Part shown: positions 5,594-33,727 of the stretch, piece after piece | Layout of the letters: every line of letters starts with the position of its first letter | Position numbering within the stretch: position 1 is the first letter of the stretch | Source of the DNA: an uncultured Chromatiaceae bacterium | GTDB lineage: Bacteria; Pseudomonadota; Gammaproteobacteria; Tenderiales; Tenderiaceae | Direction of reading: 5' to 3' | Assembly: GCA_945787785.1 (NCBI GenBank) | Contig: CALZIO010000004.1 | Coordinates: 31,087-95,086 of the forward strand | Length of the DNA stretch: 64,000 nucleotides | Position numbers and translations under genes: made by a program | The notes under the pieces: generated by a model | Databases searched by the model: none | The model's input: the letters and a program-made list of their open reading frames with translations, nothing else | What the model was told of the DNA's origin: nothing

Positions 5594-5607
5594 ATGGAGA
5601 AAGCATC

Positions 5608-10327: not shown

Positions 10328-10439
10328 TGTAGTCATGAAAAAACACGATCTTTATTTTTGACTTGAGCAGACATCCCATTGAAATATGACTAGAATCATG
10401 GGACTGCACTCAGGCAAACAACTAGTCATACAAGGACGC

Positions 10440-11357
10440 ATGATTCGGTTTATTGGCATACTGCTGATATTACTATTGAGTTTTATCTCGCCGATTCAAG
10501 CCGCCGAGAAAACCGCCAATCTTCTGATTTTATTTCCCAAGCTTAATGCCGCCTATGATCGGGTGTTTGCCGAGATAGTAGACGGGATAGATTCACACAA
10601 AGATATCACTCCTCATACCTATACGCTGACACAATCAAGCAGCGCAAACGATATACAGCAACTAATCAACGAACAGAAGATAGACGCAATTATCGCGCTC
10701 GGGCAATCAAGCTACGACATTGGCCAATCGTTTGGTAAACAACTACCCGTGATCCATGGCGGCATGATCATCAACCCCGGCAGTCATAGTGGTATCAGTC
10801 TGGCAGGTTCTCCACAACAATTTTTTAATCACTTACAAACCGTTGCGCCATCCGTTAAACGTGTCTTCACTGTTTATAGCGAAGCAAATAGTGGTTGGCT
10901 GATTCGTCTGGCACAGGAAGAGGCAAAAAAGGCAAATATCGAATTAGTGGCAATCGCAGCAAAGGATATTCGACAAGCAGCACAATCATTCCGCAAGATT
11001 CTGGATGAGGCCAATGGATCGACAGACGCTATTTGGCTGTTACTCGACAGGGTTCTACCTAGCCAAACAGTTTTACCTCTGGCACTGGAAGCTGCCTGGA
11101 AAAGAAATATTGTGATTTTTTCCAACAATCCTTTACACACCAAACGAGGAGCATTGTTTGCATTATTTCCTGATCATCGCGAGATGGGCTATAAACTGGC
11201 TGATCTGAGTTTGCAACAAATCTCTTCGACACAACCATTAGTTATACCTTTATCCAGCCTCAAAATAGCAGTAAATGAACGCACCGCATCACATCTGGGT
11301 TTACGTTATTCAAATGCAGAACGTGAATCATTCGACATTATTTATCCATCTAGATAG
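10440..11357 (+). CDS. periplasmic ABC-type substrate-binding-like protein (ABC_sub_bind/COG2984-like), likely sensor accessory protein
   Basis: The ORF opens at 10386, but the signal peptide begins at Met 10440 (MIRFIGILLILLLSFISPIQA). Overall alpha/beta pattern resembles stand-alone binding proteins found beside sensor kinases. By-eye call only. Confidence 0.5.
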   Translation: MIRFIGILLILLLSFISPIQAAEKTANLLILFPKLNAAYDRVFAEIVDGIDSHKDITPHTYTLTQSSSANDIQQLINEQKIDAIIALGQSSYDIGQSFGKQLPVIHGGMIINPGSHSGISLAGSPQQFFNHLQTVAPSVKRVFTVYSEANSGWLIRLAQEEAKKANIELVAIAAKDIRQAAQSFRKILDEANGSTDAIWLLLDRVLPSQTVLPLALEAAWKRNIVIFSNNPLHTKRGALFALFPDHREMGYKLADLSLQQISSTQPLVIPLSSLKIAVNERTASHLGLRYSNAERESFDIIYPSR

Positions 11358-12907
11358 TGAAGAAGAGAAAAGTGATAGACCAACAAACACATATCCGATC
11401 AAAAAGTTTTCGTGTTCAGCTGACCACGATCTTTTCGATTGGCATACTGGCGTTGGGTCTAGTGGGTGCGCTATCGTCTGCCTGGGTTACCAAGGTGCAT
11501 ATTGAAGACCAGTTGTTTGAAAATGGCCTTCAGGTTACCGAATCACTTGCCACTCAATCTGTCCTGGCGCTAATTTACGATAGCCCGGAAAATGCCGATG
11601 ATGCCGCCATCGCAGCCATGGGGTTTCCCTCGATAGAACATGTGGCTATCTTAACCACCGCTGGTAATGCACTGTTAAGCAAAGGTGAAACAATCGAGCA
11701 ATACGATATATCGAAAATTACTAACAAAGTTGCACTGCTAGAGGAAACATTGGAACACTGGGTATTTGCTGCACCTGTTTATATTCTCGATCAAATCACT
11801 GCTGACGAACAACCTTTGCTATTTGAAACCGAACAACAACAAGAGCTACTTGGCTACGTTTTGGTTAAGAAGAGCAAAGAAAAGATTGGTCAGGTCTTCA
11901 CAGCTGCCCTTACCAATAATCTTGGGATTGGATTACTATTTGCGTTGTTACTACTCGCCATCATTCACCTTTTCTTCAACCGCCTGATCACTCCACTGGA
12001 TAAGCTCTCCGTAGTAATGGGACGTGCTGAAGAAGGTGACACAAATGCCTATGCTAGTCTTGAAGGTCCACGTGAAGTCATGGACATCGCCCGCGCTTAT
12101 AACAAAATGATCGAAGCGCTGGCACAACATCAATATCAGTTGACACGTCATAATGAAATACTTGAATACGAAGTTGGTGAACGAACCCGTGATCTAGTCT
12201 ATGCAAGGGATATGGCGATTCAGGCAAATCGAAATAAATCTAACTTTCTCTCCAATGTTAGTCATGAACTACGCACACCATTACAGTCTATACTTGGGTA
12301 TAGTGACCTGGTTCTGGAGACCTTGCCGCCTGAGCAAGACGATATTCGCCACGACATCAATACCATCGTTCAGAATGCCGAAAACCTGCTGCATATGATC
12401 AATTCAGTTCTTGATATGTCAAAGATTGAGGCTGGCCGCATTGAAGTTTCCAAACGAGAGACTAATATTGAGCAGCTTGTCAGTGGGGTGATTGAAACAA
12501 TCAAGCCTTTGATGACACCGAACCAAAATCAATTTGAGCATTCTATGCAGCTGGTTAGCCCAGTAATCAATGTTGATGCTGATAAACTACGCCAGGTAAT
12601 GCTCAATCTACTCAGCAACGCCGCCAAGTTTACCCATAACGGCACTATCCAGTTCACCATTACTCAAACTGATGAGGTACTCAACTTGCAAGTCGAGGAT
12701 AATGGCATCGGCATGAACAAGGATCAGGCCGACCATATTTTTGAGCCTTTTTACCAGATTGATGCAGGCCATACTCGCCGTTACCAAGGAACTGGGCTAG
12801 GATTAGCTATTACGCATCAATTTTGTCAGTTAATGGGTGGCTCCATTAGCGTGAAAAGCACGTTAAATCAAGGGTCTATGTTCGATGCATCTATTCCTTA
12901 CGACTAA
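11357..12907 (+). CDS. membrane sensor histidine kinase (two TM, HAMP, HisKA, HATPase_c)
   Basis: 516 aa. H-box SHELRTPL, N-box NLLSNAAKFT, G1 DNGIGM, G2 GTGLGLAI. GTG start abuts the stop of the binding-protein gene. Confidence 0.85.
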   Translation: MKKRKVIDQQTHIRSKSFRVQLTTIFSIGILALGLVGALSSAWVTKVHIEDQLFENGLQVTESLATQSVLALIYDSPENADDAAIAAMGFPSIEHVAILTTAGNALLSKGETIEQYDISKITNKVALLEETLEHWVFAAPVYILDQITADEQPLLFETEQQQELLGYVLVKKSKEKIGQVFTAALTNNLGIGLLFALLLLAIIHLFFNRLITPLDKLSVVMGRAEEGDTNAYASLEGPREVMDIARAYNKMIEALAQHQYQLTRHNEILEYEVGERTRDLVYARDMAIQANRNKSNFLSNVSHELRTPLQSILGYSDLVLETLPPEQDDIRHDINTIVQNAENLLHMINSVLDMSKIEAGRIEVSKRETNIEQLVSGVIETIKPLMTPNQNQFEHSMQLVSPVINVDADKLRQVMLNLLSNAAKFTHNGTIQFTITQTDEVLNLQVEDNGIGMNKDQADHIFEPFYQIDAGHTRRYQGTGLGLAITHQFCQLMGGSISVKSTLNQGSMFDASIPYD

Positions 12908-13004
12908 AGAAAATAGAACTTACGCCGATCTAGATATCGCGTATATCGCAACCTTAATAGATATGCCTACTGGGTCGATGCTGTATAGGACGGAGGACTA
13001 AGTT

Positions 13005-15491
13005 TTGGTAACTAATCAACGCATATTGATTGTTACGCTGGATGAAACGCAAAGCAGCGCGATTCAGAAAGTTCTAGAGGATTCAGGCTTTACCAACCTG
13101 ATCTTCGCGAATAGCAGCCATGCCGCCATTAACCTGCTTACTGACCAACAAGTAGATGCCATCGTCAGCGCCGCTGAGTTGCAGCCCGTCGACGGTTGGC
13201 GATTTGCCAGGGTTATTCGTTCCGGGGCCTTGGCCGTAAAGCAAGGTGTTCCGATCATCATGCTTTCTGATGGTTACAGCGAACGCATTGCACAAGCGAC
13301 ATCAAAGGCCTTTCAGGTTAACCGTTTTATCCCATTCGAAAAATTCCATACCCTGCCCTCTGTCATTACTGATCTATTCCGTCAGGAACATCCCGGGATT
13401 CCTAAATCACGATTGTTAGTGGTAGAGGATTACATGGATACCGTTGAACTGGTAAAGCGAGTTCTCTCCAGTCGATTTGAGATCGATGTGGCAATGACCG
13501 GTAAACAGGGTCTTGAAATCTGGCAAGAAAAACGACATGACCTGGTCCTACTCGATGTCATGCTGCCAGAAATGTCAGGTAATGATGTACTAAAAGAGAT
13601 CGTAAAGCAGGCACCTACACAATCCGTTGTCATGATGACGGCACAATCCACGCCGGAACGTGCTGCTGAACTTATACTGGACGGCGCAGTAGATTATATA
13701 TCAAAACCATTTCGCGCCGACCAATTACGCCAAGTATGTGAAATAGCCGTGCAGAGAGAAGACTTTCTCATTAGTAGCCAGGAATTCGCACAACATGAGG
13801 AAGCACTATTCCACGAGAAAGAGCTGGCCCAGATTACTCTACAATCAATTGCAGATGGCGTAATCCGTACCAATGCAGCAGGTGAAATAGAGTATATGAA
13901 CCCTGTTGCAGAACAAGTAACAGGATGGAGTTTTGACGAAGCTCGTGATCAAGCTTTCAGAAATATACTGCATTGCTTCGATAATAATGAACAGTCTGCG
14001 GACATTCCCGTTGAAGTTTGCCTCAGCAACCAAATCACACTGTATGGCTCACCTAACCTTTACTTTTTAAACCGTGAAGGGGCCAAACTAATTCTTGACC
14101 ATGTGACATCACCCATAAAAAATCGCTATAACGATATTATTGGAACGGTCATGGTGTTTCGCGATATAACCGAGGAACATGCGCTGGCAAGACAACTTGA
14201 CTATCAGGCAAAACACGATGCCCTGACTGGTCTGACAAATCGAGCAACGTTTGAAGCCCGCCTAGAAGCCTTGCTTGAAAAAATAAAGGAAAGTGATAAT
14301 ACACACGCACTCTGTTATATCGATCTCGACCAATTTAAAATAGTGAACGACACTTGCGGTCACATTGCAGGTGATCAGTTATTACAAAAAATATCTTCCA
14401 TTATTTTAAATAAAATTCGTAAAGACAGGGACGTGCTCGCTCGTTTTGGCGGTGATGAGTTTGTATTGATGCTGTCTGACTGCCTAATAAATCAGGCCAC
14501 CAAGATTGCAGAATCAGTTTGTAAAGAGATACAAGAATACCACTTTGTTTATGATGACAAAACATTTGTCGTTGGCGCCAGCATTGGCGTTGTACCACTT
14601 ACATCTGATATTACCAGTGCCAATGATGCCTTGCGTATGGCTGACAATGCTTGTTATGTCGCCAAGGAGAAAGGCCGCAACCGTGTTCATCTTTATCATA
14701 TAGATGATCAGGAGCTGGTACGGCGCAGTGGCGAGATGCATGTTGTCTCCAAAATTAATTACGCCCTGGAAAATAAAGGCTTCTCGCTGTTTTATCAGGG
14801 GATATTGCCATTAAAGGAGAGCGATGAGAATAATAAACATATTGAGATTTTGATACGCATGAAAGATGACGCCAACAACTGGATTACCCCCGGCTTTTTC
14901 TTACCCGCTGCAGAACGTTATGGTGTGGCATCAAAAATCGATCGCTGGGTGGTAAGTACATTAATGGAATGGTTATCAAATCATCAAAGATGTCTGAAGC
15001 AAATCAATATGGTTTCGATCAATCTATCGGGGCTTTCATTTCGTGATGAAAAATTTCCCGATTTCGTTAAGGGTGAAATTCTGAAAAGAAAAATACCTGC
15101 TAAGAAAATTTGTTTTGAAATTACAGAAACAGCCGCTATCAGCAATCTTCAGGATGCAGCAGACTTCATCAATACCATGAAAGAGGTCGGCTGTAGTTTT
15201 GCCCTGGATGACTTTGGTAGTGGCATGTCTTCTTATGCGTACCTAAAAGCGTTACCCGTTGATTACTTAAAAATAGACGGTATGTTTGTCAAAGACATAA
15301 TGGATGATCCCATCGACAAAGCCATGGTTAAATCAATAAATGAGATTGGTCATGTGTTTGGCTTAAAAACGATTGCTGAATTTGTCGAAACAGAAGATAT
15401 CATCGATGAACTGTGTAAACTTGGTGTCGACTTTGCTCAAGGATATGCCATAAGCAAACCTATATCCATTGATGAACTCGCTTGCACTTAA
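13005..15491 (+). CDS. response regulator with two REC domains, PAS, GGDEF and EAL domains (c-di-GMP turnover)
   Basis: 828 aa, TTG start. Second REC has LVLLDVMLPEMSG. The GGDEF motif is intact (RFGGDEFVLML). The EAL domain shows EILIR, DDFGSG and LKIDG motifs. Confidence 0.9.
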   Translation: MVTNQRILIVTLDETQSSAIQKVLEDSGFTNLIFANSSHAAINLLTDQQVDAIVSAAELQPVDGWRFARVIRSGALAVKQGVPIIMLSDGYSERIAQATSKAFQVNRFIPFEKFHTLPSVITDLFRQEHPGIPKSRLLVVEDYMDTVELVKRVLSSRFEIDVAMTGKQGLEIWQEKRHDLVLLDVMLPEMSGNDVLKEIVKQAPTQSVVMMTAQSTPERAAELILDGAVDYISKPFRADQLRQVCEIAVQREDFLISSQEFAQHEEALFHEKELAQITLQSIADGVIRTNAAGEIEYMNPVAEQVTGWSFDEARDQAFRNILHCFDNNEQSADIPVEVCLSNQITLYGSPNLYFLNREGAKLILDHVTSPIKNRYNDIIGTVMVFRDITEEHALARQLDYQAKHDALTGLTNRATFEARLEALLEKIKESDNTHALCYIDLDQFKIVNDTCGHIAGDQLLQKISSIILNKIRKDRDVLARFGGDEFVLMLSDCLINQATKIAESVCKEIQEYHFVYDDKTFVVGASIGVVPLTSDITSANDALRMADNACYVAKEKGRNRVHLYHIDDQELVRRSGEMHVVSKINYALENKGFSLFYQGILPLKESDENNKHIEILIRMKDDANNWITPGFFLPAAERYGVASKIDRWVVSTLMEWLSNHQRCLKQINMVSINLSGLSFRDEKFPDFVKGEILKRKIPAKKICFEITETAAISNLQDAADFINTMKEVGCSFALDDFGSGMSSYAYLKALPVDYLKIDGMFVKDIMDDPIDKAMVKSINEIGHVFGLKTIAEFVETEDIIDELCKLGVDFAQGYAISKPISIDELACT

Positions 15492-15520
15492 TGCTATATC
15501 AATTATTAACAACTATTTCG

Positions 15521-17389
15521 CTATGACGTGAAATCTGCTCGATCAGGCATCCGCCTTTCCTGCCTGCCAGGACGACCTGATTGACGCCGATCCAAAACAC
15601 GCATCCGAATCCCCATTGGCGGTATCTCTTCAGAATCGATGTAAACATCTAAAAGACTGGGGCCAGGTCTGGCTAATATTTTAGCAAAATCGAGCTGCTC
15701 AAAATCCGTATGGCTTCGTACTGTATAACCATCCGCCCCCATGGCGCGCGCCATCGCTGAGAAATCAACAGGTGGTAATTTATACCCAATTGATTCACCA
15801 CCACCCAGACGTTGACCATGCTTTACCATACCCAAAGCCTGGTCATTTAAAACGATAAATAAGACTGGAAATCCCTCTTGCACTGCAACAGTGATTTCCT
15901 GACCGCTCATTAACATCGCACCATCACCCGTAATAATTACAACCGGTTTTTCAGGGGCTGCTGTGGCAACGCCTATAGCATTTCCGATTGCCCAGGCCAT
16001 GGAACCAAAGCCAAGGCCAATGCGCAAATTTCCACTCGTTCTAAGATTTAGATAATGTATTGTCCAGGCCCATGCATTTCCTGCATCGATAACATAACGA
16101 GTATCTTGCGGAAAAGCGTTTGGTAATTGCTGCATTAACCATTGCGGCTTTATTGAAGTCTGCTGAACAAGTTTAGTTGCAAAACTCTCACTCGCATTTT
16201 CTTCATCAACATCACTCTGGAATACTGTGTTTAAAGTAAAACCCAATTCGCTATCAGTTTGAACTGTAAATGGTGGTAACTTGTTTACATACTTTTCTGT
16301 TTTTGCAGATGCAAGAATATCTGAATTTAATTTGTGAAAAATTTCCTTGGGATCACCAAAAACATGCAACCTAGCCATGGGTGATTGGGCGAAATTATCA
16401 AACGTAGAATCAATATGAACAAGCTTGTTGTTTAGAATGGCCAGCTTATCCCAGGCAGATGTATCAAACTCATCCAAATTGCTACCGATAGCAATCAACA
16501 GATCAACGTCAGGGTCCAATAAAACCTCACGTGCAGTAATATGGCCTGCGAACCCAAAAACACCTCTGTACAAGTGATGGAAAGCATTCACCCACGTCTT
16601 ACCTGATGGCGTTGAAACAATGGTTGAATTTGTCATTTCTGCAATCTTGATGACTTCTTCTATCGCACCATCTCTACAGCCACCACCAACCAGCAGTACC
16701 ATTTTTTTAGAATTTCCAACGATGTTTAATAACTTTGAATAGCTCAGGGCATCAATAAACGTTGAAGGCCGCATGAGCTCTTGAATATCATAGCTAGGAC
16801 GGCGAGGTGCTGATTCGTCTTTCAGAATATCCATCGGTATACTGAGATGAGCTGGGCCTTGTGGCTTAGAAAAAGCTGCCGCTATCGCTTTTAGAAGCTT
16901 TCCTTCTAGTTGATCACGGTGTGACACCATGGAATTAAAGCGAGTGCAATGGGTCAACATCCCGACAATATCAATACCCGCATCAGAAGAGTCTTGCAGT
17001 GCTAAACGACCAAAGTCACGCAGTGCTGTTTGCGGTGTAATAACAAGAATTGGATCGCGTTCAGCAAACGCAGTGGCAATCCCCGTCACTAAGTTAGTTG
17101 CACCTGGTCCGGTTGTCGAACAGCAAACACCCAGATTGCCTGTTTCCCGCGCATAACCTGTGGCCATGAAAGCAGCGCCAGTTTCATGCCTGGCAACAGT
17201 TAATTTAATCCCGTCTGGATAGCGACGAATGTGCCTGGCCAAGGCATCAAACAAAGGTTCAATTGCGCCCCCCGGCACACCAAAGACACGTCTGACGCCT
17301 AGATGATAAAGATAATCGACGATTAAATCTGCGTAGGTATGCTGAATAAAATAATGGCTAGTGGTGTCACGAATTCTTTTTGCCGCCAT
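15521..17389 (-). CDS. thiamine-diphosphate-dependent enzyme, acetolactate-synthase-like (COG0028), paralogue 1
   Basis: The ORF opens at 17401 (GTG), but ATG 17389 follows a GGAG Shine-Dalgarno. Shows RHETGAAFMATGYARETG, TTGPGATN, and GDGAMLM plus NDQALGMV ThDP-binding motifs. Arg-rich C-terminal tail. Confidence 0.8.
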   Translation of the reverse strand: MAAKRIRDTTSHYFIQHTYADLIVDYLYHLGVRRVFGVPGGAIEPLFDALARHIRRYPDGIKLTVARHETGAAFMATGYARETGNLGVCCSTTGPGATNLVTGIATAFAERDPILVITPQTALRDFGRLALQDSSDAGIDIVGMLTHCTRFNSMVSHRDQLEGKLLKAIAAAFSKPQGPAHLSIPMDILKDESAPRRPSYDIQELMRPSTFIDALSYSKLLNIVGNSKKMVLLVGGGCRDGAIEEVIKIAEMTNSTIVSTPSGKTWVNAFHHLYRGVFGFAGHITAREVLLDPDVDLLIAIGSNLDEFDTSAWDKLAILNNKLVHIDSTFDNFAQSPMARLHVFGDPKEIFHKLNSDILASAKTEKYVNKLPPFTVQTDSELGFTLNTVFQSDVDEENASESFATKLVQQTSIKPQWLMQQLPNAFPQDTRYVIDAGNAWAWTIHYLNLRTSGNLRIGLGFGSMAWAIGNAIGVATAAPEKPVVIITGDGAMLMSGQEITVAVQEGFPVLFIVLNDQALGMVKHGQRLGGGESIGYKLPPVDFSAMARAMGADGYTVRSHTDFEQLDFAKILARPGPSLLDVYIDSEEIPPMGIRMRVLDRRQSGRPGRQERRMPDRADFTS

Positions 17390-17489
17390 TGCTTTCTCCA
17401 CGGCTGATCATTAATCCCTAATATACCCCACACTAATATAAATGGAATTTATATGCAATAATTGATTAATTTTTCAGCCTCAGCATTTC

Positions 17490-17555
17490 ATTTATCTAAA
17501 TAAATTCACACATAATTCTTGCCAAAATAGATGATAAATATTTATCTTTGATAAT
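17490..17555. promoter_or_regulatory. candidate Fur-family-like operator in the divergent promoter between the ThDP enzyme and the O-methyltransferase
   Basis: Perfect 14-bp palindrome GATAAATATTTATC at 17533-17546. Further heptamer ATTTATC at 17490-17496 and GATAAT at 17550-17555. A TTGCCA -35-like hexamer lies at 17519-17524. Confidence 0.3.
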
Positions 17556-17595
17556 TTATACTTAACCCGTGAAGATTTAATTAGGAGAACATATT

Positions 17596-18624
17596 TTGGA
17601 CTTTGACAATCTCGCATCTTCTAATTTAGAAGAAGATAAGGCGCTGTGGAATATTATCTGTGGCCTAATTGGATTACCAGCTGTGTTTGTTGCCCACAAA
17701 CTTGGCCTATTCTCACTCTTGAATAAGGGTAGTAAAACAACTGATGAAATTTGTAATGCGCTTGGTACGGAGAAACGTGCAACTCATGCGATGCTGGATG
17801 TGAATGTGTCATTAGGTTTGATTACCAATAATTCAAATCAATATTTACTAACAAACACCGCAAAAAATTATTTACTAAATTCCAGCCCTACTTACTTAGG
17901 GTGTTTTTTAGATCTTGTTATCGCTAACAACAGTTCGATCTCAATTGATAGCCTGCATAACGCATTAAAGACCGGTAAAGCTCAAGCCTATGAAGGGCAA
18001 GATATTTTCGAATCACATGCAGAAATGGAAGAACGAGCACGCGTTTTCACACGAGCAATGCACAGCGCGAGTGTTGGTCCGGCAATGCATTGGCCTAAAC
18101 ACCTCGATCTTTCCGACAGCACATGTTTTTTAGATATCGGTGGAGGCTCCGGAGCTCATGCCATTAGCGCTCTCAATGCATGGTCAAACCTCAAGGGCAT
18201 TGTTTTTGATCTGGCACCTGTTTGTGAAGTTGCAAAAGATATTGCTCTTGAAAGTGGCGTATCTGACCGTTTTAATGCTGAATCCGGAGATTTATGGGAG
18301 ACGCCCTTCCCTTCTGCTGATGTCCATTTCTACTCACAGATCTATCACGACTGGCCTGAGGATAAATGCCAATTCTTAACTCAAAAGAGCTTTGACTCAC
18401 TCGAGCCCGGTGGAAAAATTATTATCCATGAAATGCTTTATAACGATGATAAATCAGGGCCGTTTGTCACTGCTGCATCCAGCATAGGTATGCTTCTTTG
18501 GACACAGGGTCGCCAGTATTCAGGTAAAGAGTTAACAGAAATGTTAACTACGGCTGGCTTTATTGAGGTGGAAGTTAAACCAACATATGGTTACTGGAGT
18601 ATTGTGACTGGGCGTAAACCTTAA
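17596..18624 (+). CDS. class I SAM-dependent O-methyltransferase (Methyltransf_2 / natural-product OMT type with N-terminal dimerisation/wHTH domain)
   Basis: 342 aa. TTG start 8 nt after an AGGAG Shine-Dalgarno. SAM motif I LDIGGGSGAH and downstream FDLAPV, typical of the COMT/ASMT-like family. Confidence 0.75.
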   Translation: MDFDNLASSNLEEDKALWNIICGLIGLPAVFVAHKLGLFSLLNKGSKTTDEICNALGTEKRATHAMLDVNVSLGLITNNSNQYLLTNTAKNYLLNSSPTYLGCFLDLVIANNSSISIDSLHNALKTGKAQAYEGQDIFESHAEMEERARVFTRAMHSASVGPAMHWPKHLDLSDSTCFLDIGGGSGAHAISALNAWSNLKGIVFDLAPVCEVAKDIALESGVSDRFNAESGDLWETPFPSADVHFYSQIYHDWPEDKCQFLTQKSFDSLEPGGKIIIHEMLYNDDKSGPFVTAASSIGMLLWTQGRQYSGKELTEMLTTAGFIEVEVKPTYGYWSIVTGRKP

Positions 18625-18669
18625 TAACACGCGGCCCATAGATTTATCAAATAGAAACTAATTTTTCAA

Positions 18670-19485
18670 TTAGTCTGACACTGGCCGATATGGGTTACCT
18701 TGGTAATCTATATCTTCGCATTGCATCGGTAAAAAAGAATTGGGGGCGGTGTCTCGAGTATCAACGTAACAGGCGGTAACTCCGCTTGCTACGAGAACTG
18801 AAAAAATACGGTAACACTCCTCTGGAGTAATACCCTGGTCAGATAAAAAACCAGACATATATCCATTTATGTTCATCGTTTCATCATAAGTATTCGAGAG
18901 ATACTGTTCAATGGAATAAGCGAGAGATAAATGATCACCTATTTCGAAACCTAAACTCTCAGTTACTCGCTCCATGGCGGGTATACGTTCATCACCTTTT
19001 GCGATAGGTCGCGCATACCCCATGATTTCAGGTGTACCTTTGCGAACACGGTTTGCTGCCATCACAATTTCTTCGACTGATTTACCGCTATGGTAATCAG
19101 ATAATGCCTGCTGAATAAATCTAAGCCCTTCAAGCAAGGGCCTCACGCCATATGAACGAGCATCCGTTGCTAATATACCAGCACAGGTCGCGGCAATGAC
19201 AGTGGTTTGTGTTGTTCCTCCCAAGGCCCCAACCTGGTTGCACCAAATACGTGGATCAGGCCAACTCAAGCAAATAAAAATTGCATCCATCCAGTCAGCC
19301 AAGCGTCGCTCAGGCAGACGACCCGTCGCATTAAGAAATACCACCTGCATGTAAGACGTTTTACCAACAAAATCATCCATCATGGAATAGCCATGACTGA
19401 GCACACCTTGACCAATCTTCCAACCGCCTTTTTTGCTGACTATTTTTCCACGGTGTTGATCCCAAAAACTTGTGTCATTAATCAT
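18670..19485 (-). CDS. citrate synthase / citryl-CoA lyase superfamily-like protein (degenerate), copy A
   Basis: The ORF is open to 19557; possible starts at 19557, 19509 and 19485. IMGYARPIAKGDERIP aligns by eye to the citrate synthase GFGHRVY..DPR motif. Helical repeat pattern resembles the citrate synthase large domain. Confidence 0.4.
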   Translation of the reverse strand: MINDTSFWDQHRGKIVSKKGGWKIGQGVLSHGYSMMDDFVGKTSYMQVVFLNATGRLPERRLADWMDAIFICLSWPDPRIWCNQVGALGGTTQTTVIAATCAGILATDARSYGVRPLLEGLRFIQQALSDYHSGKSVEEIVMAANRVRKGTPEIMGYARPIAKGDERIPAMERVTESLGFEIGDHLSLAYSIEQYLSNTYDETMNINGYMSGFLSDQGITPEECYRIFSVLVASGVTACYVDTRDTAPNSFLPMQCEDIDYQGNPYRPVSD

Positions 19486-20302
19486 TTTCAATGAAGTAGT
19501 CCTCGTCATCAATGAATGGCATGGCGGTGATCGGTTTATTGGATAATTCACTGCCATGCGCCAATAATCCTGGGGCGCTCATGATTTGATAAATTCCAGC
19601 TGCAGCACGGGGCTGAAAACCCAGGTTTGTTAACACCGCTGCAACCACACCTGTCGCTAACCAACCCATTCCCTCTTTATTCAACGCTTGAGTAAATTGC
19701 TGCCCCCAATGCAACACAGAGCCCGCGGCAGGCAATCCTCTCAAGTGTTTAGCTATTTCCGCACTAAGCAAATCAATACCGTTATAGTAACTTCCAAATC
19801 CAGGGGCAATATGCCAATCACCCTGTTCGGGGCGTTCATTTTCTTCAACCAGGCGTGCCGCGACTTCAGCCGCATTTTGTCGCTGTTGTTTGCGCAAGAA
19901 ACGCATGGATGCTTCCAATGTGCCAGCAGCATTATACGTACCACTTAATGTTGTTAATGCGATAGGCAAAATCAAAGCGGGGTCCGTTTTGCCAACTCCG
20001 GCATTCATAGCCGCACGCGTTGCCGGATGCCGTGGACCTGGATTAATAAACCCTATCATTAATGTCTCTAACAATTTTGCTTCGTCTACACTTGGCAGTT
20101 CACCTCGAAACAATAAATACAGGACGTCAACAAAACTCCGCTTCTGCATCAGCTCAATCATGTCATAGCCGTGGCAAAGACTTTGCGCTGCGATGTAAGG
20201 ATTGTCCGCTGATGGCACCTCTTGCCATATTCGTGTTGCGGGCCGCTTTACAAAAACATCACTTCGTTTACGCACCTGGGCTGAGGGTTTGGATGATTTC
20301 AT
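19478..20302 (-). CDS. citrate synthase / citryl-CoA lyase superfamily-like protein (degenerate), copy B
   Basis: 274 aa. CHGYDMIELMQKRSFVDVLYLLFRGELPSVDEAKLL matches the canonical citrate synthase N-terminal signature (Y.GY....L....SF.EV.YLLL.GELP). APGFGSYY sits at the GFGH position. Confidence 0.5.
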   Translation of the reverse strand: MKSSKPSAQVRKRSDVFVKRPATRIWQEVPSADNPYIAAQSLCHGYDMIELMQKRSFVDVLYLLFRGELPSVDEAKLLETLMIGFINPGPRHPATRAAMNAGVGKTDPALILPIALTTLSGTYNAAGTLEASMRFLRKQQRQNAAEVAARLVEENERPEQGDWHIAPGFGSYYNGIDLLSAEIAKHLRGLPAAGSVLHWGQQFTQALNKEGMGWLATGVVAAVLTNLGFQPRAAAGIYQIMSAPGLLAHGSELSNKPITAMPFIDDEDYFIEND

Positions 20303-20557
20303 AATTAATTCATATGTAATAGTGATTCATGACCCTTCCCACAAGATAATACTATACCCACACCGGCTGAGATTAGCATAGAAAAGCTGGGGATAAGTAG
20401 GCTCTAGAAGCGTTGTTGTCATGCCACTAGCGAGTGTTCACAAACCCTCTAAGCTCCGTTTAGTAAAGACGGGCCTATTGTTTATATTTTACATATGGCA
20501 ATGCTTGCAGGTTTGCGAGTGGAGCTAATTGCGCTAGTTAAAGATTTACTTTTTCAA

Positions 20558-22720
20558 TTAGCGGATGTGGGCAATAGCCTCAAGAAATACGCTACGCCCT
20601 TCGAGAGGATAGTCATCTGGAATTGCGCCATTACTTGGTTCACGCGCATCCTCATCAAACAGATTATTCACCCTAGCGGCTACTTCCCATTTCTGACTTC
20701 GAGCGTGATAACGCAAAGCCATATCCACTGTTGAGTAGTCATCAATGGCCGGACGGGGATCCGAATCGGCGCGGGCTCGGTCTGCAATCCAATTGAACTG
20801 ACCATAGAGCAGCCATGCCTGAGCAAAATTCCAATTGGCAGCCAAAAATAGCTGCCGCCTTGGCGCGTTGGGTATCACAACACCCGTTTCAGCATCTTCG
20901 GAATACTGTAGCGCATAATTACCTGACAACTCTAAAGCATCACTTGCTTGCCATGTTGCTTCAAATTCAAGCCCCTCGCCATTTTGTTTTCGTGCATTTT
21001 GCGCTAAGCCATTAACGTATTCAATTAGATCATCAATCTGATATGTATAGAGATTAAGTATTAAATGCCAATCGAAGCTGGGGCGATAATCGAACGCCAA
21101 TTCGACCATATCAATTGTTTCAGGCTTCAATGAGCTATTTCCTGTTAGCGATGGGTTATTCTGAAAATAAAGCTCACCGAAACTTGGAGCACGGAATCCT
21201 CGACCGTAGAGCAATTTGCTTGTCAGGTTGTAACGCGTTGCCCAGACCAAGGCTAATCGTGGATTGGTGGTACTGCCGAAATCAGAGTAATTATCATAAC
21301 GAATCCCCGCTGTCAGCTCCCAATCCCGTCCCAAACTCCATTCATCCTGAATTGATAAGTAATAAAGTTCACGCGTCTCATCCGGTAAAAAGATATTTTC
21401 TGTACCCGTCACATCTGTCAACGTGCCATCAATAGGGCTCACTGAACCATCAATCACGCCGGGGCCATAATTCTGAGTAGCACGGGCTTCTAAATCGTCT
21501 CTGTCAAACCCCAAAGCAAGTCGAATACGATGGACATCAAATCCTGTATAGGTTGTGGCTACTTCAAAGCGCCATTCCTCTTGTAAAACACCAGGATTTC
21601 CATGCATGCCATCGGTAAACTCAACAGGACAGACATCGCCTAAAATTGGGTGCGGTGTAGGAGAAGGACAACCCGGGGGCGTTAAAAGATTACCATCGCC
21701 CCCTATCGGTAAAAGGGCACCTGGCGGAAAAAGCCTGAAAGTTGCTTGCTCATCCAACTCTCGATATGAAAGCCGGGAATCTAAACCCCAGCCCTTACCT
21801 ATGTCTTGTTTTGAATAGTCCAAAACAAGACTATAGTGGTCAACCTCCTGTTTTCCAAAAGGGTCGATCGCTTGGGCTGCACCTGGCCCCACCCCCGCAT
21901 CTCTGAGATTCCAACTATTAAACCACAATCTCCAATGCTCTTTACTAACAGTAATAGATGTATTCAACTGTTTGTAACCCGATTCGAGTGGACCTGGAGT
22001 TAATGATGCATTTGTTCCAAACATGGCATCGGCATCAAATGTAGTTTGTAAGTCAGAATTTACAATGCGGTTTCTATCACCATCTGTGCCTGTGTATTCA
22101 ACGCTTAGTGCAATATCCCAGCTACCCAGGTCTCCACCATATTGGCCCCAGATGTCTGTGGTATCGAATGAGCCAACACGGCCACCAACCTCAACACCAT
22201 CAATATCACCTCCCTCTTTAGTGATGATGTTTATGACTCCCGCAAAAGCATCTGCACCAAAGACCGCCGAACCCGGACCACGCATAACCTCAACACGTGC
22301 AATATTGGCGACCGGCATGCGGAATAATGGTGATCGATATCCATTTACAACACTTTTAATCGGCAATCCGTTTATCAGAATTAAGACTTGAGCATTTTCA
22401 CCGGTATGAATACCACGGATAGAAATTAGACTGTTATTACGATTAAAGGATTTTGAGACATGTAGACCAGGAACACTCTCCAACGCTTCATCCAGTGTAC
22501 GAGCACCACTGGCTTTTATATCTGCAGCAGTAATAACAGATGCAACTGAGGGCGCCAAGTGTATTGGCTTGCTAGTCCCGGTCGCGATATTTACGATCTC
22601 TTCATCTTCATACAACAGCAGAAAATCTTCATCCGCAGAATCCATTAAAGGATCAGCTTGAGCGATAGAAAAGTTCAGCGCGGTAGCAACTGAAATTGCT
22701 ATTCTATTCTTGTTAAGCAT
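20558..22720 (-). CDS. TonB-dependent outer-membrane receptor
   Basis: 720 aa. Signal peptide (..SIAQA). Plug-domain motifs (ITAADIKASGARTLDEALESVPGLHV, IRGI, NGLPI, VEVMRGPGSAVFGADAFAGVINIITK) followed by a beta-barrel. GGAG Shine-Dalgarno 6 nt upstream. Confidence 0.9.
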   Translation of the reverse strand: MLNKNRIAISVATALNFSIAQADPLMDSADEDFLLLYEDEEIVNIATGTSKPIHLAPSVASVITAADIKASGARTLDEALESVPGLHVSKSFNRNNSLISIRGIHTGENAQVLILINGLPIKSVVNGYRSPLFRMPVANIARVEVMRGPGSAVFGADAFAGVINIITKEGGDIDGVEVGGRVGSFDTTDIWGQYGGDLGSWDIALSVEYTGTDGDRNRIVNSDLQTTFDADAMFGTNASLTPGPLESGYKQLNTSITVSKEHWRLWFNSWNLRDAGVGPGAAQAIDPFGKQEVDHYSLVLDYSKQDIGKGWGLDSRLSYRELDEQATFRLFPPGALLPIGGDGNLLTPPGCPSPTPHPILGDVCPVEFTDGMHGNPGVLQEEWRFEVATTYTGFDVHRIRLALGFDRDDLEARATQNYGPGVIDGSVSPIDGTLTDVTGTENIFLPDETRELYYLSIQDEWSLGRDWELTAGIRYDNYSDFGSTTNPRLALVWATRYNLTSKLLYGRGFRAPSFGELYFQNNPSLTGNSSLKPETIDMVELAFDYRPSFDWHLILNLYTYQIDDLIEYVNGLAQNARKQNGEGLEFEATWQASDALELSGNYALQYSEDAETGVVIPNAPRRQLFLAANWNFAQAWLLYGQFNWIADRARADSDPRPAIDDYSTVDMALRYHARSQKWEVAARVNNLFDEDAREPSNGAIPDDYPLEGRSVFLEAIAHIR

Positions 22721-22822
22721 CGATTACTCCATCTGCAACATCAATGACTCCCTTCAAATGTTAGCTCAGGATAACATAAGCCCTGAATTTATAAACATTT
22801 TTACTACCCATCAGTATTTTTA

Positions 22823-24700
22823 TTATTGATTAAGTGTATCCACACGCGCGCCGATAGGTGGCACTGATTCCGGGTCAATATAAACATCCAACAAGGTCGG
22901 GCCTTTTGCCTGACAAATTTTATTGATGTCCAACTGATCGAAGTCATGCGGTGAACGAATCGTATATGCCTGTGCCCCCATGCCTCTTACCACGTGGGCA
23001 AAATCGACAGGGGGTAATTCAAAACCCATTGCTTCGGCACCAGCAAGGCGTTGGCCATGCTTAACCATGCCTAAAGCGTGATCATTGAGCACAACAAAAA
23101 TTACAGGTAGCTGTTCAGCGACGGCAACAGTCAATTCCTGACCACTCATTAAAAAGCTACCATCACCAGTGATACAAACAACCGGATTTTTACGCCCACC
23201 CAGCGATGTCCCAATCGCTGCACCAATCGCCCAGGACATGGCACCAAAACCAAAACCTATACGTTGCATGCCAACACTTTCGAGAAACAGATAATGTGTA
23301 ACCCAGGCCCAGGCATTGCCGGCATCCACCACATAACGAGTGTTATCCGGAAAACGTTGAGCCAGCGCTCTCATCAAGCGTTGAGGTTTTATGGGCGTAG
23401 ATTCATTTGTTGTACTGCCAGGATCATTTACACTTAGTTGATGTGGTAGATACTGACTTGTATCAGTAACAGGTTTTATATCTGCCTTCTCTGATAAATT
23501 CGCATGTAGCTTTGTAGATTTCAGAATGTAGTCTTTATGTAAGCAGGCAAAGATACTTCTTATGTCACCTGATAAGTGTAAGCAGGCCATTGGCGAGCGG
23601 GCAAAATCTTCTGGTGATGCTGATATATGAACCAGCTTGTTATTCATCAGTTGCTTGTTCCAGCCGCTAGTTGACAGTTCGCCCATAGAAGTGCCAACCG
23701 CAAGTATTAAATCAACATTCTCATCAGAGAGCGTTTCATGGGCAGTTTGATGGCTGGCAAAGCCAAACACACCTCGATTAAGTGGGTGATAGGCATTCAC
23801 CCAGCTTTTACCTGATGGTGTGGTGACGATAGGGGTATTTGTCATTTCGGCATATGCCATGATGATATCGATGGCGTGTCGGCATCCACCACCTAGAAAC
23901 AGGACATTCTTTTTGGTTTTTCCAATGGCTTCTGCCAGTGTTTGATAGGCATCATCATCCATCGAGCGTGGCTGGCGAAATAGATGCGCCACCTGATAAC
24001 CTGTTGCATCTGCAGATGGGGTCGCATTAAGAATATCCATTGGAATACTGAGATGAACAGGACCACGTGGTCGACGGAAAGCATTCAATAAGGCGGTATA
24101 GAGCTTACCTTCAAGTTGATTCGGGTGTGATACGAGGCTGTTGTATTTGGTGCAATGTTCAAACATGCCGACGATATCAATCGCATCCATGGAAGATTCC
24201 TGCAAACCTTGTTTACCAAAATCAGGGAGCTTGGTTTGCGGTGTAATCACCAACATGGGAACCCGGTCAGCATACGCTGAGGCGACACCAGTAATTAGAT
24301 TGGTCGCACCAGGACCTGTGGTAGCACAACACACGCCGAGACGGCCTGTTTCTCGGGCATAACCGTCGGCCATGAAGGCCGCTCCGGATTCATGACGGGA
24401 TATGATTGGCTTGATATGTGCCTTTCCATCACGCCGCCGCATCGGTGCCAAACTATTAACCGCTAAACACCGAGTTGACATGGCGACGGGCTGACGCAGT
24501 TGACGCGCCAAGGCATTGTAAAGGGGCTCAATCGCGCCACCAGGAACACCAAAAATATATTCCACATCGATTTGAACCAGGTAACTGACAATCAAGTCTG
24601 CATAGGTAAATATTTGCACCGGTAAAGGTTCTGGCGCATACATCTCGACTGCCTGTGTCATAGAACCCATAGAATCACTCATAGTTAGAATCCCACCCAT
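22823..24700 (-). CDS. thiamine-diphosphate-dependent enzyme, acetolactate-synthase-like (COG0028), paralogue 2
   Basis: 625 aa. Collinear with 15521-17389 (YADLIV.YL, GVPGGAIEPL, RHE.GAAFMA.GYARETG.LGVCC, TTGPGATNL, GDG..LMSGQE.TVAV, VLND.ALGMVKHGQRL). The start codon is uncertain (24700 or 24682). Confidence 0.8.
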   Translation of the reverse strand: MGGILTMSDSMGSMTQAVEMYAPEPLPVQIFTYADLIVSYLVQIDVEYIFGVPGGAIEPLYNALARQLRQPVAMSTRCLAVNSLAPMRRRDGKAHIKPIISRHESGAAFMADGYARETGRLGVCCATTGPGATNLITGVASAYADRVPMLVITPQTKLPDFGKQGLQESSMDAIDIVGMFEHCTKYNSLVSHPNQLEGKLYTALLNAFRRPRGPVHLSIPMDILNATPSADATGYQVAHLFRQPRSMDDDAYQTLAEAIGKTKKNVLFLGGGCRHAIDIIMAYAEMTNTPIVTTPSGKSWVNAYHPLNRGVFGFASHQTAHETLSDENVDLILAVGTSMGELSTSGWNKQLMNNKLVHISASPEDFARSPMACLHLSGDIRSIFACLHKDYILKSTKLHANLSEKADIKPVTDTSQYLPHQLSVNDPGSTTNESTPIKPQRLMRALAQRFPDNTRYVVDAGNAWAWVTHYLFLESVGMQRIGFGFGAMSWAIGAAIGTSLGGRKNPVVCITGDGSFLMSGQELTVAVAEQLPVIFVVLNDHALGMVKHGQRLAGAEAMGFELPPVDFAHVVRGMGAQAYTIRSPHDFDQLDINKICQAKGPTLLDVYIDPESVPPIGARVDTLNQ

Positions 24701-25285
24701 TGAGTTGTATCGTACACGCTAGTAATTTATTAACCACAATTAAAATGATCATAAGTAAACGCCAAGTAAATTAATCAATTACTCACATGGACAATTACTA
24801 ATTGAGTGAACGAATTAAAGCAAAAAGTAAGAATCTATCCTTTACGACAGACAACCAGGCTATTGATTGGCGGCTTGAATGGCCACACACTGAATAAATA
24901 TCTACGTTGATTAAATTCACCGCACCATCCTTGTTTCGGTGTAATACTGTTAAATTATTAGTGCAAACCACCCCCTTGGTTTAGACACAGTACAGTGCTT
25001 CCCGGTTTTTATAGCAGAAAAACCCTCATTTGGCTTCTTGCTTTTTTAGCTTATGGGCGCAGATAAAAATATCAGAACTAATTATTTTTCAATAGCGACT
25101 ACATCAATTGAGTACATAAGGGCTTATGTATTGAATTAAAATCCGTCTAAATAATCTCCAATTGGACAAATTACAATTTTTTACTTCAAACTTTTATGGT
25201 CAGTATTTTGTAACACGGTTGTCACTAATTCACTCAATATACATATTGTATATATGAAAAAATCGCAAGATTTTGGCAATAGTAA

Positions 25286-25326
25286 ACAAAAACCCCCGGC
25301 ATACCTTAGGCATGCCGGGGGTTTTA
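25286..25326 (-). terminator. rho-independent terminator of fbp
   Basis: cccccggcat / atgccggggg 10-bp stem. On the minus strand it is followed by TTTTTGTTT. Confidence 0.8.
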
Positions 25327-25346
25327 TAAGGTGCTTTAGAGTCCGT

Positions 25347-32955: not shown

Positions 32956-32992
32956 TCCTTTACATTTTGTTTATTGGAGTTAATATAAATCC

Positions 32993-33727
32993 GTGTCCAG
33001 TTATAAAATAATCAAACCCGATCCTGAAGCAGCTTGTTTGGAAGCCGCAAAAAACTTTTTACGTTTGGCACATCAATGTGTAGAACAAAAAGGCGAATTC
33101 AGCGTCGCTTTAGCAGGTGGCTCTACACCAAAGAAGTTTTATCAAATTCTTTCACAAGCACCTTATTCAACATCCATTCCTTGGGGAAAGATGCGTGTTT
33201 TCTTTGGTGATGAACGTGCCGTAGCGCCAGATCACCCTGATAGTAATTACGGAATGGCAAATCAGAATCTGTTTAAAAAGATTAGTATTGATCCCCTGCA
33301 TGTTCATCGAATCAGCGCAGAGTTACCCCCTGAACAGGCAGCTGAGGCATATCATACAATTCTAAAGACCTTTCTGCCTTCCAATGATGCAGGCATACCT
33401 GTTATCGATCTTGTAATACTTGGGCTGGGAGATGATGGCCATGTCGCTTCTCTATTTCCCGGCACCGAGATTTTAGACGTTGAAGATAAAACCGCTGCCC
33501 CTGTATGGGTTGAAAAGAAAAACAGCTGGCGCATTAGCTTAACTTTTCCAATTATTAATAGTGCAGAAAATGTTTGGATGATGGTTACTGGTGAAGGTAA
33601 AAACGATATCGTTGATCGAATTTTCAACTACCCTTCCGTTAGCGATCCGTTACCTGTGGAGCGGGTTAACCCACAGAGTGAAGTTATATGGTATCTCGAT
33701 GAGGCCGCTGCTAACTGGGTAAGATAA
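32993..33727 (+). CDS. pgl: 6-phosphogluconolactonase
   Basis: 244 aa, GTG start. Shows ALAGGSTPK, FFGDERAV, and LGLGDDGHVASLFPG motifs. Confidence 0.85.
   Translation: MSSYKIIKPDPEAACLEAAKNFLRLAHQCVEQKGEFSVALAGGSTPKKFYQILSQAPYSTSIPWGKMRVFFGDERAVAPDHPDSNYGMANQNLFKKISIDPLHVHRISAELPPEQAAEAYHTILKTFLPSNDAGIPVIDLVILGLGDDGHVASLFPGTEILDVEDKTAAPVWVEKKNSWRISLTFPIINSAENVWMMVTGEGKNDIVDRIFNYPSVSDPLPVERVNPQSEVIWYLDEAAANWVR

Follow-up and report, generated by a model that had tools for sequence, protein, structure and literature searches.

A conserved gene module in a Tenderiaceae bacterium that may couple a dedicated small molecule to cyclic di-GMP signalling

Results

Nine genes at one locus

We analysed a 64,000-nt stretch of contig CALZIO010000004.1 from an uncultured Chromatiaceae bacterium (GTDB family Tenderiaceae), referred to here as the window, and focus on nine of its genes, between positions 10386 and 24700, that encode enzymes, an outer-membrane receptor and signalling proteins (Table 1). 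Six of them had been singled out in an original prediction, made from the letters of the sequence, as an AT-rich, foreign-looking "orphan" island without a recognised pathway. All six open reading frames (ORFs) of this block, 15521-24700, were recovered at the coordinates given then, and searches with Pfam and NCBIfam reproduced the domains assigned to them: two sets of TPP_enzyme_N/M/C domains, typical of enzymes that use thiamine diphosphate (ThDP); Methyltransf_2; a citrate-synthase-like pair, which we call CCL-A and CCL-B after citryl-CoA lyase (CCL); and the Plug and barrel of a TonB-dependent receptor (TBDR). None of the six proteins reached an NCBIfam equivalog cut-off.

The six genes are an incomplete unit. 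Directly to their left lie the genes for a sensor, a kinase and a PAS-GGDEF-EAL protein, which had been overlooked and which are the most consistent partners of the block. The functional unit, at about 10386-24700, is larger than first described, and the linked signalling genes shift its likeliest role from plain metallophore production towards signalling.

Table 1. Features of the locus, in window coordinates
Feature	Position	Strand	Basis
PF04392 (ABC_sub_bind) periplasmic binding protein	10386-11357	+	Pfam E=1e-14
Membrane histidine kinase	11357-12907	+	Pfam HisKA + HATPase_c
Cytoplasmic response regulator, REC-REC-PAS-GGDEF-EAL	13005-15491	+	Pfam
ThDP-1, accessory paralogue	15521-17401	-	TPP_enzyme_N/M/C
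Methyltransferase	17596-18624	+	Methyltransf_2 + Dimerisation
CCL-B	18670-19485	-	No Pfam match; NCBIfam citryl-CoA lyase E=8e-17, below cut-off
CCL-A	19478-20302	-	Marginal Pfam Citrate_synt; NCBIfam citryl-CoA lyase E=8e-27, below cut-off
TBDR	20558-22720	-	Plug + beta-barrel
ThDP-2, core carboligase (putative), first gene of minus-strand operon	22823-24700	-	TPP_enzyme_N/M/C
Promoter/leader of ThDP-2 operon	24701-25288	-	Alignment with L004 and L010

The same families are linked in many lineages

An alignment of CCL-A was searched against one genome per GTDB species, which returned 180 matches; the best 80 were taken with 10-kb flanks, and every ORF at these loci was scored against the window proteins. 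Families were counted within 8 kb of CCL-A at the 43 genome loci with at least 8 kb on both sides. CCL-B and the TBDR are each present at 41 of the 43, a ThDP enzyme at 36 and a GGDEF-EAL protein at 35. A periplasmic sensor, either a PF04392 homologue or a YfiR-like DUF4154 protein, was found at 25 loci (19 for the PF04392 homologue alone) and a histidine kinase at 23. A short-chain dehydrogenase/reductase (SDR) accompanies CCL-A at 15/43 loci and a methyltransferase at 2/43, and a second full-length ThDP copy at one locus, to which the Tenderia-like metagenome contigs L091-L093 can be added.

The linkage also holds in the opposite direction. With ThDP-2 as the query, an independent collection of metagenomes gave the CCL pair at 18 of 22 full-flank loci and signalling genes at 17 of the 22, and in 17 metagenome contigs the GGDEF-EAL gene immediately precedes the ThDP gene on the same strand. 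The families of the original prediction are thus found together in many other genomes, whichever side the search starts from. De novo clustering of 2,480 neighbouring ORFs from 81 loci yielded no further conserved family, an inner-membrane importer, an exporter and TonB-ExbBD included; the extra clusters were shadow ORFs.

Altogether, the conserved core consists of CCL-A, CCL-B, the TBDR and one ThDP enzyme, and beside this core lie a periplasmic sensor, a PAS-GGDEF-EAL protein and, in many cases, a histidine kinase. Four families of the six-gene set are therefore core, whereas the exact set recurs only in near-identical metagenome-assembled genomes (MAGs), which also carry the block; the additional ThDP gene and the methyltransferase are accessories of particular lineages.

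The order of the genes and the kind of sensor change from lineage to lineage, but the set of families does not. Tenderia, the window organism and Desulfuromonadales combine a binding protein, a kinase and a REC-PAS-GGDEF-EAL protein; Gallionellaceae pair the binding protein with a membrane HAMP-PAS-GGDEF-EAL protein; and some Chromatiales and Thiotrichaceae use DUF4154 with CHASE8-HAMP-PAS-GGDEF-EAL. In Cellvibrio DUF4154 is fused to a hybrid kinase, an example being the YfiR-like DUF4154 domain joined to a hybrid histidine kinase in Cellvibrio fibrivorans (L045:5227-7590). Judged by their record titles, the carriers fall into Tenderia, Chromatiales and allied lineages of sulfur oxidisers; Gallionellaceae (Gallionella, Sideroxydans, Sideroxyarcus); Desulfuromonadales (Trichloromonas, Geoalkalibacter, Desulfuromonas); Desulfobulbales, including the cable bacteria Ca. 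Electrothrix; Cellvibrio and other Cellvibrionaceae; and many unclassified Gammaproteobacteria. Several of these hosts are chemolithoautotrophs, and many are obligate or near-obligate autotrophs. One cable-bacterium locus, that of Ca. Electrothrix aarhusensis (L070:7745-16820), holds a TBDR, CCL-A, CCL-B, a methyltransferase, an SDR, a 273-aa condensation-domain-like protein and a ThDP enzyme; this ThDP enzyme is of a BbmA-like type (about 44% identical to BbmA) and not of the window type.

The ThDP enzymes are closest to acyloin synthases of secondary metabolism

ThDP-1 and ThDP-2 are 53% identical to each other, and both have, besides the N/M/C domains of the superfamily, the cofactor-activating glutamate (RHE) and the GDG...LND motif. 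Their probable starts, an ATG at 17389 for ThDP-1 and 24682 for ThDP-2, give proteins of 622 and 619 aa. A tree of the module's ThDP enzymes places ThDP-2 with the enzymes of loci that have one ThDP gene, to which it is orthologous, and ThDP-1 with the second copy of Tenderia, which indicates that ThDP-1 arose by a duplication specific to that clade.

The best relative of the two window enzymes in the PDB is BbmA (8x3x; E 1e-89 and 1e-87), a Brevibacillus protein, and CsmA (8x3z) gave 1e-75 and 1e-78. These matches, at 31-35% identity, are about 25-40 orders of magnitude better than those to acetohydroxyacid synthases (AHAS; ~1e-50 to 1e-55), with benzaldehyde lyase at 1e-38 and 2-hydroxyacyl-CoA lyase (HACL) at 1e-35. 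The ThDP enzymes of cable-bacteria and Desulfobulbales modules come closer still, at about 44% identity to BbmA. Curated cut-offs were missed by wide margins: 291 and 300 bits against 538 for acetolactate synthase (TIGR00118), 260 and 256 against 510 for AlsS, 225 and 218 against 1020 for ScyA (NF035923), and 261 and 241 against 1000 for the ScyA-related family (NF035927); of the named families in NCBIfam, ScyA and ScyA-related score at a level with the models for AHAS. No ilvN/ilvH, ilvC or alsD partner lies within 4313-28644 or among the families conserved over the 81 loci, and the absence of ilvN/ilvH/ilvC, nonribosomal peptide synthetase (NRPS) and NRPS-independent siderophore (NIS) synthetase partners claimed earlier was borne out. 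The view that these are not ordinary acetolactate synthases is therefore upheld: that identity is ruled out by the curated cut-offs and the context, and we found no characterised orthologue for either protein.

Judged by these comparisons, the enzymes are nearest to secondary-metabolite acyloin synthases. They are closer to BbmA and CsmA than to AHAS, pyruvate oxidase, benzaldehyde lyase or HACL, which places them in a loose ScyA/NzsH/BbmA-like branch, and ThDP-2 may be a carboligase that joins 2-oxo acids. ScyA and NzsH ligate an aryl- or indolyl-pyruvate to another 2-oxo acid and so form intermediates that are acyloins or beta-keto acids (PMC9822442). ScyA, NzsH, BbmA and CsmA share with the window enzymes the three-domain ThDP fold, the catalytic glutamate, GDG...N(D/N) and a similar C-terminal ...PP(I/M)G.R...L tail; the window enzymes are set apart from this group by their modest identity to BbmA and CsmA and by the distance at which they miss the ScyA cut-offs. 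BbmA-type genes in Brevibacillus-like contigs adjoin a KAS-III-like gene, with no CCL pair, TBDR or cyclic di-GMP (c-di-GMP) genes beside them, and a search of the accessible literature found no published function for BbmA or CsmA.

In a Thiotrichaceae MAG (L008/L009:9064-9963) only fragments of the ThDP gene lie upstream of intact CCL-A, CCL-B and TBDR genes, a piece of 50-63 aa matching TPP_enzyme_C, which suggests that the ThDP step is decaying in that lineage.

A citryl-CoA-lyase-fold pair with a rebuilt active site

The CCL-B gene, as placed by public gene callers, overlaps that of CCL-A by 8 nt. Both proteins match the Hydrogenobacter thermophilus citryl-CoA lyase Ccl (PDB 6hxp) by phmmer, CCL-A at E=5.7e-17 and CCL-B at E=5.5e-10, and an AlphaFold2 model of CCL-A (pLDDT 85) has 6hxp as its top Foldseek match (TM-scores 0.66/0.70); the fold is thus assigned to CCL-A by sequence and model and to CCL-B by sequence. 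Both fall far below the NCBIfam citryl-CoA lyase cut-offs (94 bits against 212 for CCL-A, 61 against 245 for CCL-B). In a family-aware three-way alignment with 6hxp, the catalytic histidines (DHG and GYGHR) and aspartate (NVD) are replaced in both proteins, by N-P, GFGS and gap/T in CCL-A and by W-P, GYAR(159) and NIN(205) in CCL-B, and these replacements are conserved family-wide. Of the substrate arginines one survives, in CCL-B (AKGDER), and the canonical citrate/oxaloacetate-binding residues are mostly lost. The pair had been described as degenerate, and the triad is indeed gone from both proteins; cut-offs, context and catalytic residues together rule out an ordinary citryl-CoA lyase.

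Loss of the triad has not been accompanied by decay. CCL-A is 55-75% identical across three proteobacterial classes, and CCL-A and CCL-B, at 22% identity to each other, are always encoded together in the module. CCL-A has the invariant motif INPGPRHPATRAAM; CCL-B has WPDPRIWCNQ and four cysteines, C72, C82, C239 and C256, invariant in 73 CCL-B sequences, which could form a metal or Fe-S site. The pair is under strong purifying selection and has invariant polar residues of its own. The CCL-B family is small, with 59 representative clusters at E<=1e-30 among 1.84 billion. A double-length relative of 523 aa (P0241), considered as a possible A-B fusion that would have been Rosetta-stone support for a heterodimer, was rejected as such: it consists of tandem CCL-B-like halves, each with GxDER, SGVTAC and LPLQCED.

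The CCL fold is obligately oligomeric, which is compatible with an A/B heterodimer, and we presume that CCL-A and CCL-B form one. Fold and length (about 270 aa) are common to the pair and to citryl-CoA lyase, the CCL module of ATP-citrate lyase and citrate synthase; unlike citryl-CoA lyase, the pair consists of two diverged paralogues with new motifs and no triad, in a context unrelated to the reductive tricarboxylic acid (TCA) cycle.

Two arrangements connect the pair with metabolism, and not with a role that is structural only. In Cellvibrio fibrivorans (L045:10795-12387) CCL-B is fused to a C-terminal SDR reductase domain in a protein of 530 aa. In one clade of Gammaproteobacteria, a stand-alone CCL-A homologue (about 57% identical; L049, L050, L051, L078 and L083, e.g. 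L051:1780-10810), with no CCL-B, TBDR or ThDP gene, ends an operon for acyl-CoA dehydrogenase (FadE), thiolase, FadB and an AMP-binding acyl-CoA synthetase, which links the family to CoA-ester chemistry.

Receptor, methyltransferase and signalling genes

The TBDR has a signal sequence, a Plug domain (E=1e-25) and a barrel (E=6e-43). It misses every NCBIfam subfamily cut-off, including those for B12 (151 against 600 bits), haem (149 against 317) and siderophore (146.5 against 223.5) receptors, its similarity to solved structures is at the level of the plug only, to CirA and BtuB, and Pfam finds no N-terminal signalling (STN) domain, the Plug beginning at residue 56. The methyltransferase is a generic family-2 enzyme dependent on S-adenosylmethionine, whose nearest solved structures are 5i2h (an uncharacterised O-methyltransferase), the S-methyltransferase DsyB and a hydroxyindole O-methyltransferase, a mixture that leaves the acceptor atom uncertain. 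Its homologues stand beside the CCL pair only in a Gammaproteobacteria MAG (L046) and in Ca. Electrothrix aarhusensis (L070). For the TBDR, the binding protein and the methyltransferase alike, solved structures gave generic matches only and no substrate class.

The binding protein, a putative ligand sensor, has a cleavable signal peptide ending ...SPIQA/AEK and weak similarity only to PDB 3lkv and 3lft. The start of the kinase gene overlaps the stop of the binding-protein gene, and transmembrane segments at residues 18-36 and 189-207 of the kinase enclose a periplasmic loop of about 150 aa. In the translation of the response regulator the GGDEF motif is intact, and the EAL domain reads EIL, with DDFGSG, EITE and KIDG present; the motifs of both domains look intact. 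A secreted binding protein, a kinase with a periplasmic loop and a REC-GGDEF-EAL output together form a binding-protein-coupled sensing architecture, with putative ligand-dependent control of the kinase and of c-di-GMP turnover.

Base composition, synteny and neighbouring genes

The spacers of the block are AT-rich, as had been reported, with G+C fractions (GC) of 0.26 (17402-17595), 0.40 (20303-20557) and 0.35 (24701-25346). The seven 60-nt hand counts of the original prediction are also exact, but they do not represent the block, which has 44.8% GC where the window averages 47.4%; among windows of the same length, 24% have a GC no higher than this, and 1-kb windows within the block range over 0.40-0.48. 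In a sliding-window view the bulk difference therefore lies within the normal range, and what persists is a modest depression of GC at third codon positions (GC3), which averages 0.39 over the nine genes of 10386-24700 against 0.51 +/- 0.08 in other genes (Mann-Whitney p = 1.6e-4). This dip is wider than the block, taking in the adjacent binding-protein, kinase and GGDEF-EAL genes, and because it runs from 10386 the left boundary first drawn for the block was wrong. Equally low GC3 occurs in 7 of the 41 other window genes, so it is not unique to the block. A "compositionally foreign" origin is thus supported weakly at best. Two other parts of the window, 31384-34731 and 37264-39515, have GC3 as low as the module's (0.34-0.41).

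The earlier statement that no integrase, transposase or tRNA marks the borders holds: the window has no tRNA gene, and no integrase or transposase lies between 4313 and 28644. The term "orphan", with its sense of a recent island, does not fit. Ca. Tenderia-like genomes have the same flanks around the block, fbp, lgt, thyA and folA on one side and the GGDEF-EAL, kinase, binding-protein and LVIVD-repeat genes on the other, and their CCL-A proteins are only about 74% identical to that of the window; shared flanks in relatives as diverged as this argue against recent insertion, and together with the composition they rule it out. Carriers are scattered patchily over Gammaproteobacteria, Betaproteobacteria and Desulfobacterota-type lineages, a pattern that implies past horizontal transfer; an old spread from class to class is likely.

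Just upstream of the binding-protein gene lie genes for a 919-aa secreted LVIVD-repeat/beta-propeller protein (6664-9423) and a 290-aa secreted protein of no Pfam family (9455-10327), both syntenic with the module in Tenderia/Chromatiales-type loci (e.g. L004, L011, L014, L041, L076) and not in other lineages. The LVIVD gene is preceded by genes for a class-III aminotransferase and an aldo/keto reductase (4313-6648), with markedly higher GC3 (about 0.65), that are not conserved with the module.

The leader of the ThDP-2 operon

ThDP-2, the TBDR, CCL-A and CCL-B form an operon on the minus strand that is preceded by about 590 nt of non-coding DNA, which follows the fbp terminator described below. 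This leader has a conserved -10-like TATAAA and, about 50 nt downstream of it, a conserved block of roughly 40-90 nt, ACACCGAAACAAGGATGGTGCGGTGAATTTAATCAA (24881-24969, with its core motif at 24925-24939, minus strand), that is common to the Tenderia-like loci L004 and L010. A small hairpin, CACCG...CGGTG, is kept in two of the three sequences; in L010 it can be drawn by eye with G-U pairs, and the predicted fold of L010 differs. An nhmmer search found no copy of the block outside the Tenderia-like clade, and we reject it as a module-wide regulatory element.

Between 9000 and 27000, Rfam gave only a sub-threshold STnc310 match at 25270-25333, which is due to the strong intrinsic terminator of fbp (25289-25325, minus strand; 17-bp stem with 10 G-C pairs); a riboswitch or other known RNA in the spacers is accordingly rejected. 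Fur regulation was also rejected: no Fur box with three or fewer mismatches occurs in the window, and the best spacer matches, at 6-8 mismatches, are no better than in shuffled sequence.

Discussion

The gene content and protein families of this locus, the topology of its products, the loss of canonical catalytic residues from the CCL pair and the linkage of these genes across phyla lead us to favor a model in which 10386-24700 is one conserved module that couples a dedicated small molecule, made and taken up by its carriers and sensed in their periplasm, to c-di-GMP output. We put the probability of this model at roughly 0.4. We envision that ThDP-2 would form a C-C bond from 2-oxo acids in the cytoplasm, giving a product of the acyloin or alpha-hydroxy-beta-keto-acid type. 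The CCL-A/CCL-B heterodimer, with its rebuilt active site, would act alongside, probably still on a CoA-thioester or carboxylate substrate, and lineage-specific tailoring could be provided here by the second ThDP paralogue and the methyltransferase and elsewhere by the SDR reductase. The released molecule, or an extracellular complex of it, would be pumped back across the outer membrane by the TBDR and detected in the periplasm by the PF04392 binding protein, which would control the two-transmembrane histidine kinase. Phosphorylation of the REC-PAS-GGDEF-EAL protein would then change c-di-GMP and presumably alter attachment or motility. The direction of flow, with the molecule made before it is sensed, is proposed along with the chemistry, the heterodimer and the physiological output.

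Several features are consistent with this scheme. The absence of a conserved inner-membrane importer, exporter or TonB-ExbBD fits a ligand destined for the periplasm, and the predicted topology places the binding protein, by its signal peptide, and the kinase loop in that compartment and the enzymes in the cytoplasm. The carboligase affinities of the ThDP enzymes point to biosynthesis rather than degradation, as do the variable SDR, methyltransferase and condensation-like genes, which resemble the decoration of biosynthetic clusters; several hosts are chemolithoautotrophs, for which catabolism of organic compounds would be unlikely. A dedicated small molecule with a cognate receptor had already been suggested in the original prediction, and we retain that idea, with a role that would be signalling.

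Other observations weigh against the model. The product, the ligand and the phenotype are all proposed from genes, and the linkage of these genes is equally compatible with enzymes that process an imported compound. The 81-locus clustering revealed no linked exporter. A small acyloin normally crosses porins with no need of a TBDR, which would call for a larger or metal-bound ligand. Seven of the 43 full-flank loci have no ThDP gene and in the Thiotrichaceae MAG it is fragmented, so the ThDP step is not indispensable. The CCL pair, its triad being gone, might be non-enzymatic. The response regulator has no DNA-binding output, and thus nothing shows that sensing feeds back on the enzymes.

The module could instead be a metallophore locus, in which the enzymes make a small carboxylate or acyloin chelator whose metal complex the TBDR recovers as a nutrient, the c-di-GMP genes being neighbours that do no more than respond to metal status. 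A dedicated TBDR at 41/43 loci suits this idea, since an energised receptor befits a ligand that is scarce and of chelate size; iron or electrode redox chemistry sustains many hosts (Gallionellaceae, Desulfuromonadales, cable bacteria and Tenderia), the CCL fold binds tricarboxylates, and CCL-B has four invariant cysteines. We nevertheless think it unlikely. No recognised synthetase gene was found, whether NRPS, NIS, nicotianamine synthase or opine dehydrogenase (CntL/CntM type); the spacers hold no Fur-box-like site; the module has no conserved inner-membrane importer, reductase or exporter; and the TBDR scores below the siderophore-receptor cut-off. The residues with which the fold would hold citrate or oxaloacetate are mostly lost, and the tight linkage of the periplasmic sensor and GGDEF-EAL genes would go unexplained.

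Uptake, sensing and catabolism of an exogenous compound would reverse the flow, with import by the TBDR, a report through binding protein, kinase and c-di-GMP, and conversion by a ThDP lyase or decarboxylase, the CCL pair and the SDR. TBDR-plus-sensor arrangements are typical of nutrient scouting in Cellvibrio-type degraders, ThDP and CCL-family enzymes can cleave C-C bonds, a CCL-A homologue sits among beta-oxidation genes in one clade, and the lack of a linked exporter is expected for such a system. However, the module's conserved families include neither an inner-membrane transporter nor a CoA ligase/transferase, the output is c-di-GMP and not a transcription factor, and the ThDP enzymes are nearer to carboligases (1e-89) than to benzaldehyde lyase or HACL (1e-38 and 1e-35). 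Many carriers are obligate or near-obligate autotrophs, and a methyltransferase and a condensation-like accessory protein would be unusual in a catabolic locus. This reading, too, seems improbable to us.

A further possibility is that the metabolite stays in the cytoplasm, where the neighbouring GGDEF-EAL protein would detect it through its PAS domain; the REC domain of that protein would receive a separate external input by way of the TBDR, the binding protein and the kinase. No two genes stay neighbours more persistently than the ThDP gene and the PAS-GGDEF-EAL gene, which often look like one operon (28-440 nt apart by ORF limits, in most cases about 40-100 nt) and remain adjacent in L095 and L121, both of which have no CCL pair; PAS adjoins GGDEF-EAL in every architecture, and here also no exporter would be needed. 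We consider it quite unlikely, because it leaves the tightest partners of all, the CCL pair and the TBDR (41/43), unexplained and its PAS ligand is purely conjectural. Finally, a recently acquired foreign island of genes loosely related in function is essentially excluded: low GC3 relative to flanking housekeeping genes, AT-rich spacers and the patchy distribution speak for it, but the conserved insertion context around proteins only about 74% identical, the lack of integrase, transposase and tRNA genes, normal bulk GC and the linkage of the families over dozens of lineages speak against it.

The signalling half of the module, as we favor reading it, has parallels in known systems. NspS-MbaA of Vibrio cholerae connects a polyamine binding protein to a GGDEF-EAL protein, LuxP-LuxQ connects autoinducer-2 to a hybrid kinase, and YfiR-YfiN (TpbB) is a related case. 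All resemble the module in placing a secreted binding or YfiR-like protein beside a membrane kinase or HAMP-PAS-GGDEF-EAL protein with c-di-GMP output; the Gallionellaceae version, a binding protein with a transmembrane GGDEF-EAL protein, has the NspS-MbaA layout, and the window version, with binding protein, kinase and REC-GGDEF-EAL, is LuxPQ-like. Unlike these systems, the window module has a binding protein of the PF04392 family, a dedicated TBDR upstream of the sensor and linked cytoplasmic enzymes.

The other half is reminiscent of siderophore clusters with their own TBDR, such as vibrioferrin pvsABCDE-pvuA, in which enzymes of biosynthetic appearance likewise stand beside a specific receptor, and of ferric-citrate sensing through FecA, in which a ligand is sensed with no need to reach the cytoplasm. 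In contrast to these systems, the module has no NIS or NRPS gene, Fur box, ABC or MFS importer, exporter or N-terminal signalling domain on its TBDR, and its output is c-di-GMP rather than an ECF sigma factor. CqsA/CqsS of Vibrio and LqsA/LqsS of Legionella pair a PLP-dependent synthase with a membrane kinase that binds an alpha-hydroxyketone directly. By analogy, the module as we propose it would have an acyloin-type molecule, possibly built from an acyl-CoA and a small 2-oxo or amino acid unit, sensed outside the cytoplasm by way of a kinase; it would differ in ThDP-dependent synthesis and in its TBDR, binding protein and CCL-like proteins.

We found no published description of the module in a literature search, in keeping with the original statement that the genes match no characterised pathway. 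The component families are known, and their combination, like the rewired CCL-fold pair, appears to be new. Public annotation labels these proteins "acetolactate synthase" and "citrate synthase", and such labels mislead metabolic reconstructions of autotrophs, for example where variants of the TCA cycle are deduced.

A bolder form of our model, which we regard as doubtful, is that the module represents a new class of signalling, between cells or between a cell and its environment, that is widespread among bacteria that oxidise iron, reduce metals, form cables or grow on electrodes. An acyloin-type product of the ThDP enzyme would be matured by a neofunctionalised CCL-fold heterodimer, concentrated into the periplasm by its own TBDR and read by a binding protein or YfiR-like sensor that sets c-di-GMP and hence attachment to minerals or electrodes. 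If our main model holds, c-di-GMP signalling would gain a small-molecule input of a new kind, a TBDR would be seen in a new use, serving a periplasmic sensor instead of admitting a nutrient, and the citrate-synthase/CCL fold would have a new function after loss of its triad. Among the carriers are iron-oxidising Gallionellaceae, Desulfuromonadales, cable bacteria and Ca. Tenderia, an autotroph of biocathodes: organisms of environmental and technological importance whose genetics is poorly understood. Culturable Cellvibrio that have the module, for example Cellvibrio mixtus J3-8 and C. fibrivorans BE190, make it experimentally tractable.

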